A stretch of DNA of 64,000 nt, from contig VBBN01000027.1 of the NCBI GenBank assembly GCA_005888735.1, positions 10,969 to 74,968 on the forward strand. Reading direction: 5' to 3'. Positions 283-51,513 of this stretch are shown here, in pieces (positions within the stretch are counted from its first letter, which is position 1; every line of letters starts with the position of its first letter). The stretch comes from Candidatus Bathyarchaeota archaeon. Its GTDB lineage: Archaea > Thermoproteota > Bathyarchaeia > 40CM-2-53-6. The notes under the pieces are model-generated. The model was not told the origin of the DNA. It searched no databases and was given only the letters and a program-made list of their open reading frames with translations. A program made the translations under genes and the position numbers.

Positions 283-2666
283 AGCTCCTGAGCCTCTACG
301 CGAGTAATTTCAAGAAGCTCCAGCTCAAACAGCTCCTAACATTCCCCGAGGGCATAGTGCTCATCACCGGCCTGAATGAGAGCGGCAAGTCAACTGTTCT
401 AGACGCAATTCTCTACGCTCTCTACGGACGAATGATGCGGCCGAAAGAGCGACCGAGCAATGAGGACATCATAAGCTATGGAACCGGGGAAGCCCAGGTC
501 CGCCTCGAGTTCTCAGTTGGAGAAAACTCCTACAGGGTAGTCAGAGAGGTGCACAGGACACGACCCAGCCGAGCTATGCTCTACCTGCTGAAACCCGACG
601 GAGCCTCGAAAACGCTAGCGACGACCGTGAACGACACGACGAGCGAGGTCGAACGTCTTCTCGGCGGAATAACGTACAATGAGATTGTTGCTAGTAGCGT
701 CGTAGCCCAGAAAGACCTCGAACGGCTAATCAAGCAGAGGCTTGACGACAGGCGCAAGGTAATCAATGTATTCCTAAACCTTGATAGTTTTAACAAGGTT
801 CAGGACGAGCTAGACCAGGAAAAATCCCGCATCGAAGGAACGACAAGAAACCCTGGTCAGCTAGCTAGAGAAGAGAGAGAGCTCGAACTCCTGCTGGAGA
901 AGCTCAAAGAATACAAAGACAGAGAGTCTCAACTATCCGAACTGGATGAACGAACAACGAAGCTCGAAGCCGAGCTTGGCGAGTCTGAGAAGCGCTTTGC
1001 TCAGACCGACTCCCTTTATAAGACTCTTGGCCGATACGATGAGGCCCTCAAACTACAAGAATCATTGAAGAAAGAAATTCAGAGCCAAATAGCCCTCCGA
1101 GACAACCTCAACCAACAACTCACCAGTCTCTCCTCGAAACGAGCTGAGCTCGAGGAAGCACAACGAAAGCTACGGGAATTCGACGGTATCACGGATATCG
1201 AACCCCGCCTGTCTCAAGCTTCAAGATTGCTCGAAGAGATGAGAGGACACGAGTTTCAACAAGCGAAGTTTAAGGAAAAAGAAGCCCAGCTTGCTTCGGA
1301 GATAGCCGAGAAAGGCCGGCGTGTCACATCCTCCTCGGGAATATCTGAAAACCATGGGCTCCCGTCGAGACGAGTATGGACCTATCTAGCGACAACAGGG
1401 GCGCTAGGAGCTGGAACGGTTCTCTCCTACTTTCTCAGTCCACAAAACTCTATTCTGCTTGTGATGGCTGTGGTTCTCGGGTCTATAGCCAGTATCTCCC
1501 TCATCCTTCTCGCACGCCAAATCGCTTCCCTCTCGCAAGAAGCGGATGTGTCCGGGAAGAAACGGGAGGAGCTTGCTACCGTCCAACTGGTCCAATTGCG
1601 GGAGAAGGATCTTGGCGAGGTGAGGCAAAACCTTGCGAGCTTGGACCAGATGCTCGATAGAGAAAGCACTGAGCTTACTCAGCTTCTCAAGTCAATCCCG
1701 CAGTACTCGAAACCCCTCCAAGGTGGAGGGGAAGACCCAAAGTTGGTTCTCGAGCTGGCTTCTTCACAGTACGAGAAGGACCGACGGGCACAAGCAGCGA
1801 TTAGTGAGCGAATTAAACTGTTGAAAGGTCAGCTCGAAGAAGAAATCCAGGTCAAAGAGCATCTTCGCGAAGCCGAGGCACACGTCCAAACTTTGAAGGA
1901 AAAGTTTGGGAACGTCCTGCTGCCAGCCCTCCCTGCGGAGGTTGTCTTCTCCCAAGATCTGCTAGAAGAGGCCGGCCAGTTCCGAGACTCTTTCAACGAG
2001 AAAGTCTCTAGGATCCGCACACAAATCGAGGACGCCATCGAACGCAAATCAGAGTATAGACGGTTCTTGGAAGAAAACAAGGATGTTGAAGAAACAGTCA
2101 ATGCCCAACAACGCAAGGTGGGGCTGCTGGAAAAAGGTCTTGCGGTAGTCAAGTATTCGTTGAGGGGCTTAGAGCAGACTTCTGAATCTTTGAGGAACAG
2201 AGTCAAGCCTCAAGTCGAACGCTTCATGGGGCTAATCCTGCCAGTCATTACTTCAGGACGCTACAAGGCTGTGGAGTTGGACGATGACTATACCGTGAGG
2301 GTGTTTGATCCTGAGGCAGGCGAGTTCAGGCCGAAGGAGGTGTTCTCCGGAGGGACCGAGGATCAGTTGCTTCTCGCGATGAGGCTCGCCTTCGCACTGG
2401 CCTTACTGCCTCAGGCCAAGGGCAGGAGCCCGGAGTTCTTGTTCTTAGACGAGCCGCTAGGCAGTTCTGACAAGATTAGACGAGAGGGCATACTGAAACT
2501 TCTCCGCGAGCAGCTTGCTCAGAACTTTCGGCAGATATTTCTGATCAGCCACGTTGGCGATTTGGAAGCAGAGGCCGATACTGTAATCTTGATGGAAAAT
2601 GGTAGCGTGCGAGAGGTCCTGAGCCGGAAACCCTCTTTACCAGAACCCGTTCAGATTCGCGCCTGA
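279..2666 (+). CDS. Rad50/SbcC-like SMC-family ATPase with central transmembrane hairpin
   Basis: Walker A GLNESGKST, Q-loop VAQ, long coiled coils, signature FSGG, Walker B FLFLDEP, H-loop ISH. Typical N-terminus (M)KLLSLYASNFK begins at CTG 279; the ORF track start is 237. Confidence 0.9.
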   Translation: MKLLSLYASNFKKLQLKQLLTFPEGIVLITGLNESGKSTVLDAILYALYGRMMRPKERPSNEDIISYGTGEAQVRLEFSVGENSYRVVREVHRTRPSRAMLYLLKPDGASKTLATTVNDTTSEVERLLGGITYNEIVASSVVAQKDLERLIKQRLDDRRKVINVFLNLDSFNKVQDELDQEKSRIEGTTRNPGQLAREERELELLLEKLKEYKDRESQLSELDERTTKLEAELGESEKRFAQTDSLYKTLGRYDEALKLQESLKKEIQSQIALRDNLNQQLTSLSSKRAELEEAQRKLREFDGITDIEPRLSQASRLLEEMRGHEFQQAKFKEKEAQLASEIAEKGRRVTSSSGISENHGLPSRRVWTYLATTGALGAGTVLSYFLSPQNSILLVMAVVLGSIASISLILLARQIASLSQEADVSGKKREELATVQLVQLREKDLGEVRQNLASLDQMLDRESTELTQLLKSIPQYSKPLQGGGEDPKLVLELASSQYEKDRRAQAAISERIKLLKGQLEEEIQVKEHLREAEAHVQTLKEKFGNVLLPALPAEVVFSQDLLEEAGQFRDSFNEKVSRIRTQIEDAIERKSEYRRFLEENKDVEETVNAQQRKVGLLEKGLAVVKYSLRGLEQTSESLRNRVKPQVERFMGLILPVITSGRYKAVELDDDYTVRVFDPEAGEFRPKEVFSGGTEDQLLLAMRLAFALALLPQAKGRSPEFLFLDEPLGSSDKIRREGILKLLREQLAQNFRQIFLISHVGDLEAEADTVILMENGSVREVLSRKPSLPEPVQIRA

Positions 2667-2673
2667 TTCACAG

Positions 2674-3429
2674 TTGAGCCTCGAGTGGCTTTACACCTTC
2701 GACGAGCTTCGAGCCTACAGCGTCGATACGAAGCAAGGAAAGTTGAGGCTAGGGTCGACTATCAAACACATGCCGGATCTATTAGAGACAGCAGGAATAA
2801 GCCTCCCAGAGAATCCGAAGGTCCTTTGTCTAATGGCTGGCTCTTGCATCGAAGGACTGGCCTTCGCGCAACTCTACAAAGCCGAGGTGACATGTCTAGA
2901 CGTGCAGAAACGAATGCTTCTGAAAGGCGTCAGGGAAGCAAAACGACGAAAGCTGAGACTGAAAACCGTCGTGGCAGATGCAAAGGAGCTCACAAAGAAG
3001 GTCAAAGGCACATTCGACCTTGTTACAATACTCGGCTCTCCACTGGCTCACCTTGGAATATCCGACTTCGACGGTGTCGTGACCCAGGTCAAAGAAGTAT
3101 TACACCGAAAAGGAACTTTTCTCGTCGAACAATCAGATATGGTCTTCCGAATAATGCCGTACTACAGAGATGCCATGGTCCCCAACGTCAACCCGCCAGT
3201 CATAAACGTCCACATCAGCTTCAACCCAAAAGAGGGATATTTCGAACGACTGCTCTTTGGGAGAAACAAGCAGGAGGTCTCCAGAGTATTCCTATGGGGT
3301 CCTTGGATTATTGAGTACGTATTGAAAAAGAACGGGTTCTCAAGCGTCGAGGTTAATCCATACGCCGACCCCTACTTGACGGTACAACCATTTCTCTTTA
3401 CCGCTCGGAGTAGCTGGAGAATTGTCTAG
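2674..3429 (+). CDS. Class I SAM-dependent methyltransferase
   Basis: KVLCLMAGSCIEG motif-I variant, VTCLD, VADAKEL, FDLVTIL and GTFLVE Rossmann pattern. Confidence 0.75.
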   Translation: MSLEWLYTFDELRAYSVDTKQGKLRLGSTIKHMPDLLETAGISLPENPKVLCLMAGSCIEGLAFAQLYKAEVTCLDVQKRMLLKGVREAKRRKLRLKTVVADAKELTKKVKGTFDLVTILGSPLAHLGISDFDGVVTQVKEVLHRKGTFLVEQSDMVFRIMPYYRDAMVPNVNPPVINVHISFNPKEGYFERLLFGRNKQEVSRVFLWGPWIIEYVLKKNGFSSVEVNPYADPYLTVQPFLFTARSSWRIV

Positions 3430-48865: not shown

Positions 48866-48910
48866 ACATGAGAGGGCTTCGGGGAGGAAGGTACTGTTAT
48901 AATCGAACTA

Positions 48911-49465
48911 TCAACCTGGGGTTATGCGACCGACCCGCATTTCCTCGGTGACAATCCATGTCTTCCCCATGTCCCGAGATTCAACTGCTCGCCAGCGGAA
49001 GGATAGAGGGGTAATCTCGGAGAAGATCCAGTGCTCAGGATACCCTTCCCTCGTCTTGCCCCTCAGCACAATCTCGTCGCTCTCTTTCCGTGCCACGAAA
49101 GTTTGCAGAACGCCTTGTTTGGGTGAGATCCAGATATTGTGCCAAGCGTCTATCTTGGGGTCGTAGTACCTGACAGTCGTCCCGGATGGAATCGCCTTTC
49201 CCGTTCGCTCATCTTTGCTCATCCAGACATCCTGTACGGCTCTCCCGTTGAGAATCCAGCCGAAGTGGATCTCGCCTTTGGTTTTGATTTCGGTTCCATC
49301 GGGTTGAGCATAGCGAGCATCCATTTCCCAATCTCCCACGAACTGACCGAAGAGCATCAGCTTCTCTTTGAGTTCCGGGAATGGACCTTCAGCTCCCAAT
49401 CCCTTGATTGTCCAAACCTGACCTGGCTGGAGCGAACCAACGACCTCCTTCATCATGAAGCCCAT
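48911..49465 (-). CDS. Lipocalin-like beta-barrel protein (DUF1579-like)
   Basis: FGQFVGDW, FGWILNGRAVQDVW, GTTVRYYDP, WIFSEIT..SFRW. Confidence 0.7.
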   Translation of the reverse strand: MGFMMKEVVGSLQPGQVWTIKGLGAEGPFPELKEKLMLFGQFVGDWEMDARYAQPDGTEIKTKGEIHFGWILNGRAVQDVWMSKDERTGKAIPSGTTVRYYDPKIDAWHNIWISPKQGVLQTFVARKESDEIVLRGKTREGYPEHWIFSEITPLSFRWRAVESRDMGKTWIVTEEMRVGRITPG

Positions 49466-49636
49466 CTCGCTTTCGACTGGTTGAGTAACGCGTGGCCTGT
49501 CCTCATTCTAATTCGCCTACGAATTGGAGTGCGCGCTTTTCAGATAAGCGGTTCGCTGTCAAACACCGGCACTTTCGGGACAGAGAATTGTAATCGTCTG
49601 ACCTTTCTGCCCTACCGGTCTGAAGCCAGTTGGTTT

Positions 49637-49670
49637 TTGACGGCACGCTGATAATACCGTCAATTGACGG
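49637..49670. promoter_or_regulatory. Palindromic operator CCGTCAATTGACGG plus extra half-site
   Basis: Perfect 14-bp palindrome 49657-49670 and a TTGACGG half-site at 49637, just upstream of GATATATC at 49678. Confidence 0.65.
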
Positions 49671-49708
49671 GTATCGAGATATATCCTCCCGGCTCCGTGT
49701 TCTGGACA

Positions 49709-50407
49709 ATGACCCACTACGAGGTAGCCTTCAAGCTCCAGCACGAATGTCCCTACAACGCCTTCTCTACAAAATATCCCAGCGTCATAATCTCCCACTG
49801 GTGTAACTGGAGCAGAGACGTGCTTGAGATTGCCCACAAGGACTTGGAAAATCAGACAGTAATCAAGAGTATCCGGGATTTGGTCAGTCAGCTCGGGACT
49901 AAGGTCATCCGAAAATCTCAGGCGATGTCAAACTTGCAAGTAGTGTTGCAGCACTGCGCTTGTGACAAGCTGCCGCCACCTACCCTTCCAGTGATTGAGC
50001 GGCGCAACTGTCTCGAAATCCAGCCCGCAGTCTACACGGGAGGTTGGGAATGGTACCGCGTCGTGGCCTTTTCCGAAAGGGACCTAAGGAGCCTCTTCAA
50101 AGATCTGGACAAAGATTGCATTGTAGAAATCATGTCTAAGAGAGCAGTCTCCGATGAATCAGTTCGTGAAACCTTTCCTGTTTCGACAGCCACGTTGCTG
50201 GGCAAACTGACCGGGAGGCAGCTACAAGCATTGGTGGTGGCACTTGACAACGGCTATTATAACATCCCGAGGACCGCTACCGCTGGAGAGATTGCTCAAA
50301 GGCTTCGCGTTCCGCGCACAAGCTTTGTCGATCATCTTCGGAAGGGAGAGAACAAAGTGCTCCAAGGCATCGGGCCATACCTCCGCCTCAAACCAGCGGA
50401 GATTTGA
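49709..50407 (+). CDS. Bacterio-opsin-activator-type (HTH_10) transcriptional regulator
   Basis: LTGRQLQAL..ALDNGYYNIPR..EIAQRL..HLRKGENK. N-terminal HECP/HWC/HCAC. ATG 49709 preferred over TTG 49664. Confidence 0.9.
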   Translation: MTHYEVAFKLQHECPYNAFSTKYPSVIISHWCNWSRDVLEIAHKDLENQTVIKSIRDLVSQLGTKVIRKSQAMSNLQVVLQHCACDKLPPPTLPVIERRNCLEIQPAVYTGGWEWYRVVAFSERDLRSLFKDLDKDCIVEIMSKRAVSDESVRETFPVSTATLLGKLTGRQLQALVVALDNGYYNIPRTATAGEIAQRLRVPRTSFVDHLRKGENKVLQGIGPYLRLKPAEI

Positions 50408-50438
50408 CCTGTCTCGAAGGCTGGATGTTGGACAGAAA

Positions 50439-50452
50439 CCGTCACTTGACAG
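50439..50452. promoter_or_regulatory. Second copy of the operator (CCGTCACTTGACAG)
   Basis: 12/14 match to 49657-49670; precedes GATTATGT and the mini-gene at 50518. Confidence 0.55.
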
Positions 50453-50517
50453 CTAACAGATTATGTCGCAGGATCGCATGTAAGAGATGAGTGAGGACTG
50501 CAAGGGAGGTGGAGTGT

Positions 50518-50604
50518 ATGGGGCAGTACAAATGCGAGGTTTGTGGTGACTTTTCCAGTCAGCCAGGACAGTGTTGCGGACAGGAAATGAAGAAGGTAGC
50601 CTAG
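50518..50604 (+). CDS. 28-aa desulforedoxin-like metal-binding mini-protein
   Basis: MGQYKCEVCGDFSSQPGQCCGQEMKKVA*; GGAGGTG RBS; below the ORF-track size cut-off. Confidence 0.85.
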   Translation: MGQYKCEVCGDFSSQPGQCCGQEMKKVA

Positions 50605-50769: not shown

Positions 50770-51513
50770 ATGTTCACAGTTGAGGAGCGCGATCGGGTCC
50801 GCAACCGCCTCGTGGAAATGAGCCGTAAGGACCCTCGACTAGTCGCAGGCGCACTAATCGGGTCTACTGCGGCAGGTGGTGGAGACCGGTGGTCGGACTT
50901 GGACCTCACTTTTGGGCTGGTCGACGGTGCGACTGTGGAGAATGTGCTTGCCGATTGGACGACTCATCTTGTGAGCGAGTTCGGGGCTGTTCACCTGTTC
51001 GATCTTCCGTATCTGTCAACAGTGTACAGGGTCTTCCTCTTGCCGGGCAATATGCAGGTGGATTTGTCGTTCACTCCGGGGAACAAGTTTCTCGCTCGGG
51101 GTCTCAAGTACGACTTGCTCTTCGGGAACGCTCTTGAAAGGGACCAGGCCAAACCCCTCTCCCCTGGACATGCCTTCGGGCTTGCTGTGGTCTATTTGCT
51201 CCACGCGTGCGCCTGCGTTGCCCGGGGGAGGATGTGGGAGGCTGAGTACTCTATCAGTGCAGCCCGTGACCAGGCGCTCTTGCTCGCGTGCCATCATCGG
51301 GGTCTAAAGACAACCTACGGTAGGGGTTTCGATGATTTGCCCCCAGAAGTCCTAGAGCCCTTCAATAGAGCTCTTGTAGGTTCACTCGAAAAAGCTCAGT
51401 TATTACGTGTACTTGGCAGAAGCGTTGACGTGCTTCTGTGCAATTCACAAGATGTTTCGGTGCTTGCTTCGAATCTCGAACCGCAGCTTCGCGAGCTCGA
51501 GTCGTCCCAATAA
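50770..51513 (+). CDS. Pol-beta-superfamily nucleotidyltransferase
   Basis: GS..GGGDRWSDLDL, QVDLSF, helical C-terminal domain. Confidence 0.82.
   Translation: MFTVEERDRVRNRLVEMSRKDPRLVAGALIGSTAAGGGDRWSDLDLTFGLVDGATVENVLADWTTHLVSEFGAVHLFDLPYLSTVYRVFLLPGNMQVDLSFTPGNKFLARGLKYDLLFGNALERDQAKPLSPGHAFGLAVVYLLHACACVARGRMWEAEYSISAARDQALLLACHHRGLKTTYGRGFDDLPPEVLEPFNRALVGSLEKAQLLRVLGRSVDVLLCNSQDVSVLASNLEPQLRELESSQ

Follow-up and report, generated by a model that had tools for sequence, protein, structure and literature searches.

The locus considered here raises the question of why a perfect palindrome adjoins the promoter of an archaeal regulator gene, with related sites in front of two neighboring genes, and which protein reads it. 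The locus lies within a stretch of 64,000 nucleotides (nt) from a Candidatus Bathyarchaeota archaeon (the window, to which the positions below refer), which corresponds to C62:10969-74968 of a 2.39-Mb genome (G000). It includes a gene for a regulator of 232 amino acids (aa) (49709..50407, plus strand), a mini-gene for a cysteine-containing protein of 28 aa (50518..50604, plus strand), and a divergent gene for a 184-aa protein modeled as a beta-barrel (48911..49465, minus strand). The answer that we favor, with a probability of roughly 0.55, is a local regulon of three promoters, in which the regulator would bind the palindromic dyad and activate its own gene, the mini-gene and the barrel gene in response to a thiol-reactive signal. 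To our knowledge, an operator has been assigned to very few archaeal transcription factors outside model species; for this locus, genome comparison yields a testable operator, the exact TATA-box geometry and a three-gene regulon. The close homologues come from soil TACK archaea that are recorded as Candidatus Bathyarchaeota or as Thaumarchaeota / Nitrososphaerota.

The operator of the regulator gene, O1, is the perfect palindrome CCGTCAATTGACGG (49657..49670, assigned to neither strand), which precedes the TATA box GATATATC (49678..49685, plus strand) by 7 nt (GTATCGA), a distance that is kept in orthologues. The transcription factor B (TFB) recognition element (BRE) is expected at these 7 nt (49671-49677). 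Because the TATA box lies 24-31 nt 5' of the regulator ATG at 49709, which has no Shine-Dalgarno sequence, the regulator mRNA is probably leaderless. The set of regulator orthologues comprises 88 loci with 65-100% protein identity (8 from genomes and 80 from metagenomes), among which 82 match from residue 1 onward and include 100 nt or more of upstream DNA. CCGTC-N4-GACGG with at most two mismatches is found at -51 to -60 from the regulator ATG in 82/82 of these loci, a count that, given the ancestry common to orthologous loci, overstates the number of independent observations. The site has no mismatches in 30 loci, one in 50 and two in 2; as a background, 4.8% of 5418 windows of 65 nt tiled across these loci contain such a site, true sites included. 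In the 57 unique sequences upstream of the regulator, the dyad and the TATA box carry high information content and the flanks carry little. In remote family members (33-44% identity), the equivalent arrangement is CCG[TG]C-N4-G[AC]CGG, followed after about 8 nt by TTATA.

An auxiliary half-site, TTGACGG (49637..49643, plus strand), lies 13 nt upstream of O1 and is followed by CACGCTG and ATAATA, so that it looks like a tandem copy of the unit of half-site, spacer and box. TTTGACGGCAC or a one-letter variant is present at an equal distance from O1 in most loci of the group with about 90% identity. A different arrangement is seen in family members with 40-44% identity (L008, L010, L013, L015 and others), in which 2-3 dyad-like sites, spaced about 22-27 nt apart, lie upstream of the regulator and suggest cooperative binding; many of these loci encode a universal-stress-protein-like protein and a glyoxalase-like protein downstream. 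Two other roles for the dyad were considered and ruled out: that of a terminator or RNA hairpin by its position upstream of the inferred transcription starts, and that of a mobile-element end by its fixed position relative to the TATA box in about 80 loci.

The second operator, O2 (CCGTCACTTGACAG, 50439..50452, plus strand), a 12/14 match, is followed by CTAACAG and lies 7 nt before the TATA-like box of the mini-gene, ATTATGTC (50460..50467, plus strand), which in orthologues takes the form of an xTTAT box at the same fixed 7-nt distance. A Shine-Dalgarno sequence, GGAGGTG (50505..50511, plus strand), lies 6 nt before the ATG and is conserved in orthologues as well as in distant homologues. 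The mini-gene product, MGQYKCEVCGDFSSQPGQCCGQEMKKVA, contains four cysteines (Cys6, 9, 19 and 20). Each of the 43 mini-gene copies for which 100 nt or more of upstream DNA is available has a C[CG]GACA-N2-TGACGG-like site at -71 to -90, 7 nt before the xTTAT box, with one mismatch in 11 loci, two in 31 and three in one. Included in this total are 5 mini-genes (L087, L101, L106, L110 and L111) that lie on the opposite strand or upstream of the regulator. Of the 41 loci in the group at or above 82% identity, 38 include 250 nt or more downstream of the regulator, and in 38/38 the mini-gene is found there within 300 nt; none of the 47 loci below 82% identity has it directly downstream, and in 5 of them it lies upstream or on the other strand. 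Homologues of the mini-gene are present in 11/61 related genomes. The mini-gene of L128, beside a regulator fragment with 60% identity, has the operator, and 9 distant homologues that do not adjoin a regulator gene have no site within two mismatches and possess a different promoter. The operator is thus associated with a nearby regulator and not with the mini-gene itself.

The third operator, O3, serves the divergent gene: CCGGTGTTTGACAG (49556..49569, minus strand), followed by CGAACCG, precedes the TATA-like box CTTATCTG (49541..49548, minus strand), which is kept in the group with about 90% identity, and the promoter geometry is the same as at the other two promoters. The start codon of the barrel gene is probably Met4 or Met5. 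Among the 55 loci with 150 nt or more of DNA upstream of an orthologue of the 184-aa protein (50% identity or higher), 52 contain the operator architecture, defined as a site with at most three mismatches, a spacer of 6-8 nt and a TATA-like box. Where the barrel gene is located downstream of the regulator (L007, L038, L114, L116, L118 and L119), it has its own copy of the operator. In the group with about 70% identity, a single palindrome is flanked on either side by a TATA box at a distance of exactly 7 nt, which makes a compact bidirectional promoter, with a AATATACC box 7 nt from the central palindrome common to both genes. Of the two partner genes, the barrel gene is the more widespread, and it occurs with the regulator in a broader range of loci.

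Genome comparison thus establishes the operator, the fixed promoter geometry and the co-occurrence with the three genes. The first-pass annotation of this DNA had proposed an autoregulated system centered on the palindrome and had named beforehand, as its point of refutation, a lack of conservation near regulator orthologues; the conservation in the 82 loci speaks for the proposal. A sequence check confirmed all its statements on the sequence, including the coordinates of CCGTCAATTGACGG, CCGTCACTTGACAG and the half-site at 49637. The regulator, the mini-gene and the palindrome co-occur across genomes, a point it had proposed to check, and the shared operator, autoregulation and the role of the mini-protein as a target are, at the level of comparative genomics, well supported; the mini-gene it had proposed is a conserved coding gene, with the operator in 43/43 copies. 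Its suggestion that the divergent gene belongs to the regulon also holds, given the 52/55 loci, although not by the route it had envisaged, through the half-site at 49637: the gene has its own site and box at 49541-49569.

The regulator combines two domains. The N-terminal region (residues 5-151) matches PF24280 (HVO_A0563_N) with 82.2 bits against a cut-off of 27, over 140/145 profile positions (83.2 bits in the whole-genome scan), and the C-terminal region (residues 167-218) matches the helix-turn-helix (HTH) domain HTH_10 with 54.9 bits against a cut-off of 23.1. Both domains are present in the best 120 homologues, and orthologues begin with MTHYEV. The Pfam scan (E up to 1) detected no GAF, PAS or BAT domain; the other matches, HTH_20 and HCR, are weak and below their cut-offs. 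The earlier label 'Bat-type' is thus apt for the HTH_10 domain and fails for the N-terminal half. In the AlphaFold (AF2) model (mean predicted local distance difference test score, pLDDT, 86.3), two ferredoxin/ACT-like repeats precede a C-terminal HTH resembling sigma region 4. The best VIA-align match is Ta1207 (Z 9.5, 146 residues aligned, root-mean-square deviation 4.4), on which a literature search found no publication, and ACT domains and the NikR C-terminal domain follow at Z 6-7. A Foldseek search with the whole regulator gave poor matches only (TM at most 0.42), and the profile search detected no solved-structure relative by sequence. The homodimer prediction scored 0.38 against a mark of 0.42 and counts neither way. 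Six cysteines (Cys14, 32, 83, 85, 101 and 137) and two histidines (His12 and 30) are conserved in 114-120/120 orthologues, which suggests metal binding or thiol chemistry.

The choice of a candidate signal is informed by the homologues of the regulator in haloarchaea. These are encoded on plasmids and show 36-40% identity to the regulator over 97-99% of its length; all five that were examined (L121, L122 and L138-L140) adjoin genes for a rhodanese + metallo-beta-lactamase fusion protein of about 370 aa and for a major facilitator superfamily (MFS) transporter. The domains of the fusion protein were confirmed by Pfam on the Halobacterium pNRC100 and Haloferax mediterranei proteins. The neighborhood on pNRC100 (L121, 45308-53970) also contains YeeE/YedE, TusA, DsrE and TauE/SafE genes, a gene content that resembles the bacterial persulfide-detoxification (cst) operons. 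In L121 and L122, the regulator and the fusion gene are divergently oriented, and A/T boxes flank a central dyad that is related to the operator of the window (CCGGCCATGACCGG in Halobacterium and CCAGTTATGACCGG in Natrialba) and is followed by an A/T-rich box. By analogy, this neighborhood suggests reactive sulfur as a candidate signal, and the haloarchaeal homologues may represent an archaeal regulator of reactive-sulfur detoxification; the literature search found no archaeal regulator described for cst-type genes. The absence of any sulfur-metabolism gene from the window regulon limits this lead.

The 28-codon open reading frame (ORF) has the hallmarks of a protein-coding gene. Among the 18 unique 84-nt versions of the mini-gene, 11, 12 and 21 sites vary at codon positions 1, 2 and 3, respectively, and nine residues (M1, Y4, C6, C9, G10, C19, C20, G21 and M24) do not vary among 15 homologues, which range down to 52% identity. 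Desulfoferrod_N (PF06397) scores 22.2 bits on the window mini-protein, against a cut-off of 23, and is matched by 15/15 of its relatives (E up to 1; best E 1.4e-5). In the profile alignment, positions 3-26 of the mini-protein align to residues 6-35 of the 36-aa desulforedoxin chain 1cfw, and desulforedoxin alone covers both cysteine pairs. The pattern of substitution marks the ORF as a real coding gene, and by these matches, its four-cysteine product is probably a module of the desulforedoxin type in which the hairpin is shortened.

Distant homologues of the mini-gene also occur in other genera of the same family (L130-L136), where they are arranged tail to tail with the gene for a conserved protein of about 276 aa (for example, L131 1498-1584 with a minus-strand ORF ending at 1584). 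This protein contains an N-terminal CPLCG...CNHCD zinc ribbon and a P-loop that appears, by eye, KaiC/RecA-like; no CCGTC..GACGG operator accompanies the mini-gene copies of L130-L136. Downstream of the mini-gene in the window lies a gene (50770-51513, plus strand) for a 247-aa protein that weakly resembles nucleotidyltransferases (MntA-like, E 1e-3, falling well short of the cut-off); the gene has its own A/T-rich box and occupies the same place in nearly all loci with at least 82% identity.

For the 184-aa protein of the window, there was no Pfam match (E up to 1). The description 'DUF1579-like' used in the first-pass annotation is nevertheless fair: DUF1579 (PF07617) is weakly matched by 13/27 relatives (best E 3.1e-4), one atlas cluster contains 17% DUF1579 members, and the AF2 model (pLDDT 88.6) is a ten-stranded beta-barrel of the calycin/nitrobindin type. 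Foldseek aligned this model with the spirocyclase OlmO (5e-7, TMq 0.68), with Rv0813, and with nitrobindin (2a13, E 2.6e-5, TMq 0.62; 3ia8, TMq 0.62), such that the OlmO/OssO spirocyclases outscore nitrobindin as matches. His67 is the sole nearly invariant histidine in 27 sequences. The protein has 880 homologues, with no function name among the 120 matches listed. The closest relative encodes, in tandem with this gene, a shorter second paralogue (L004 166-492, minus strand; G010 C85:6556-6951), and genome G017 contains two copies of the barrel gene.

These patterns lead to a mechanism in which we infer the binding of the site by the regulator, the direction of control, the signal and the roles of the targets. 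The regulator, presumably as a dimer, would bind the 14-bp dyad, consensus CCGTCA-N2-TGACGG, the promoter-proximal half of which ends 7 bp upstream of the TATA box, where the BRE is expected to begin. Three such dyads would be occupied, at the leaderless promoter of the regulator, the mini-gene promoter and the minus-strand promoter of the barrel gene; the presence of one on the regulator's own promoter would imply autoregulation. The bound regulator would recruit TFB and the TATA-binding protein (TBP), resulting in activation, and the cysteines and histidines of the double ferredoxin-like N-terminal domain would gate this activity in response to a thiol-reactive signal (a metal, an oxidant or reactive sulfur).

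Several observations, in addition to the shared ancestry of the loci, weigh against this reading. Within the window, the palindrome with at most two mismatches occurs in 2 copies against 0.23 expected, a number that 3/100 shuffles reach, and with at most three mismatches, it is at the chance level (3 against 2.67 expected). The genome of 2.39 Mb contains 1 perfect palindrome, 6 copies with two mismatches and 64 with three. In the genome-wide motif scan that had been proposed as a check, the combination of site, spacer and TATA-like box shows no enrichment over mononucleotide shuffles: it has 2, 1, 1 and 24 occurrences at 0, 1, 2 and 3 mismatches, where the shuffles average 0.4, 2, 13 and 40, so we claim no further targets. 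The mini-gene is damaged or altered in 9/38 close loci, in three separate ways within the clade of about 90% identity: an in-frame TGA at the Gly10 codon in L036, L050, L051, L053 and L060 (and also in genome G010), an 8-nt frameshifting insertion together with a mutated Shine-Dalgarno sequence in L045, L047 and L048 (about 3335-3345), and Cys9Tyr in L058. The mini-gene is therefore dispensable in some lineages; the operator upstream of it is kept in all the damaged loci. Across the whole PF24280 family, Cys83 alone is invariant, and HVO_A0563 lacks most of the cysteines, including Cys14, 85 and 101 of the window protein, and adjoins hutUGI, so the N-terminal domain may recognize a small ligand instead of sensing thiol chemistry; PF24280 may, on this comparison, be a general effector-binding module. 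As for expression, four contigs (151-207 nt, depth about 2, 98-100% identity) from two soil metatranscriptome runs of one study cover 48904-49413 in the barrel gene; such contigs cannot show transcription starts, could at this depth derive from contaminating DNA, and were not found over the regulator or the mini-gene in the same two runs. Finally, the dyad abuts the BRE, a position that is compatible with repression, too.

The evidential weight comes from conservation in other genomes, not from within-genome counts. A scan of the genome with a position weight matrix ranked O1 and O2 at the top, the remaining hits being without a TATA box at the right distance. The composite motif TTGACRG-N8-WTAT has three occurrences in the window, which coincide with the three promoters and compare with an expectation of 0.04, and six in the genome, three of these within about 900 bp around the regulator; since the motif was derived from the same sites, these counts are descriptive and do not constitute a test. 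A perfect CCGTCGTAGGACGG is also found in G000 at C51:53920 (L141, about 2372-2440, minus strand), followed by CCCAGAC and TTTATC, about 45 nt upstream of an ORF for a 438-aa permease-like protein rich in membrane helices, which could, judging from this site, be a further target of the window regulator or of its paralogue.

The same operator would also serve a repressor that acts at all three promoters, its own included, by blocking TFB/TBP or RNA polymerase until the signal releases it. We consider this an unlikely but serious possibility. Thiol-based sensors of bacteria such as CstR, SqrR and BigR are repressors released by their signals, local regulons that combine autoregulation with a dyad operator very often turn out to be governed by repressors, and the closest haloarchaeal contexts resemble, in the comparison with cst, repressor-controlled bacterial operons. 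Only 7 bp separate the site from the TATA box, and both the half-site at 49637-49643 and the 2-3 tandem sites in the 44% group would permit cooperative occupancy of a promoter. Repression is disfavored by the placement of the dyad, which does not reach the TATA box and shares no more than one base with the expected BRE. We lean toward activation because the dyad is located upstream of the BRE and TATA box and not over or downstream of them, because the xTTAT boxes of the target promoters are weaker, and because, in the bidirectional versions, the dyad is situated exactly between the two TATA boxes. Archaeal activators, such as Ptr2 and TFB-RF1, usually bind just upstream of the BRE and TATA box.

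Whichever the direction of control, the dyad might be read by another transcription factor or a specialized TFB, with the HTH_10 protein merely adjacent. The genome does encode other HTH_10 proteins and at least one paralogue (C62:149510-150202). We nevertheless regard this as improbable: the site travels with the regulator gene across the 82 loci and across phyla, mini-gene homologues away from the regulator lack it, and in the paralogous subfamilies, variants of the half-site track changes in the recognition helix. Specifically, PRST pairs with GC[CT]GG in 7/7 loci and PRT[TS] with [GTA]ACGG in 15/18, in sequences that are kin and hence do not represent independent events; this covariation fits the adjacent HTH_10 protein as the binder. 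The paralogue itself, a PF24280-HTH_10 regulator with 37% identity that lies outside the window (G000 C62:149510-150202; L002 1459-2328), has its own upstream dyad, CCGGCGCACGCTGG, before TTATA. It is hardly credible that the 28-codon ORF is non-functional and that O2 serves the nucleotidyltransferase-like 247-aa gene or nothing, for although the ORF is broken in several lineages and loci of the group at or above 82% identity keep the 247-aa gene downstream, the nine invariant residues persist in 15 homologues from several genera and contexts, each with a strong Shine-Dalgarno sequence, variation is highest at third codon positions, 15/15 match Desulfoferrod_N, and T-runs follow the stop codon, the 247-aa gene having its own A/T box.

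If the three-promoter regulon is real, its implications extend beyond the soil archaeon. The same architecture exists in genetically tractable haloarchaea (Halobacterium and Haloferax mediterranei), which opens the family to study without culturing the soil archaeon, and the fusion gene there suggests a signal to try. The 28-aa protein would rank among the shortest desulforedoxin-type modules and would be a clear case of a regulated archaeal micro-protein, of the kind that gene callers tend to miss. A bolder generalization, which we advance as a long shot, is that the cysteine-cluster PF24280-HTH_10 proteins are an archaeal family of thiol sensors (of metals, oxidants or reactive sulfur species) that spans Halobacteria to soil TACK archaea and recognizes the dyad CCGNC-N4-GNCGG, located between TATA boxes or directly upstream of them, with targets that would be persulfide dioxygenase-type genes in haloarchaea and, in the lineage of the window, a minimal 28-aa desulforedoxin serving as a metal or redox relay that feeds back on the sensor, along with a ligand-binding barrel.

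Compared with known systems, the module is a familiar kind of switch, with a member not described before in the literature searched: no paper was found that describes this combination of regulator, mini-gene and barrel gene, and no operator is assigned there to any PF24280 family member. The HVO_A0563-type regulators are closest in architecture, with the same pair of PF24280 and HTH_10 domains, and the search found no published function for any of them. HVO_A0563, which gave the domain its name and for which the full-text search found no papers, is encoded on Haloferax volcanii pHV4 (L124, 564329-572892), divergent from hutU-hutG-hutI, whereas the closest haloarchaeal homologues of the window regulator adjoin the rhodanese-metallo-beta-lactamase and MFS genes.

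NarO reportedly depends on four essential N-terminal cysteines. The narO gene is, we assume, located on Haloferax volcanii pHV3, where PF24280 was not found at E up to 0.01; on that assumption, the N-terminal domain of NarO would belong to another family, so the parallel with NarO is functional and does not imply membership in the same family. NarO and DmsR, which together with the Bat/Brz pair are the closest parallels in print, are described as Bat-like HTH_10 regulators of haloarchaea without PAS/GAF, act in anaerobic regulation, and include in NarO a protein that is called an oxygen sensor (PMC11218638, PMC10062603). Bat itself has HTH_10 in common with the window regulator and differs in the N-terminal part, which has GAF and PAS domains (PMC11218638), as opposed to PF24280 here. 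Brz, a small zinc-finger protein found with Bat in Halobacterium, is described as a regulator of bop (PMC2253796, PMC3184054). The likeness to the Bat/Brz pair consists in a tiny protein with a cysteine motif encoded in an HTH_10 regulatory neighborhood; Brz is a regulator of bop, whereas the mini-protein looks like a target, with its desulforedoxin-like CxxC...CC, and no evidence of kinship between the two was found.

With desulforedoxin and the N-terminal domain of desulfoferrodoxin, the mini-protein has in common the four-cysteine signature YKCxxCG...CCGxxM. It has 28 aa compared with 36 aa in the solved desulforedoxin chain, with 9 residues between the cysteine pairs against the approximately 15 spanned in the desulforedoxin alignment, and thus does not attain the full-length hairpin. 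The 184-aa model matches nitrobindin and THAP4 in the ten-stranded barrel fold. CstR, SqrR and BigR resemble the regulator in their conserved cysteines and in the cst-like gene content near its haloarchaeal homologues and differ from it in fold and family, so that the likeness to bacterial persulfide sensors is, by analogy, a lead and not a classification. In Ptr2 and TFB-RF1, which belong to protein families unrelated to that of the window regulator, the operator likewise lies directly upstream of the BRE.

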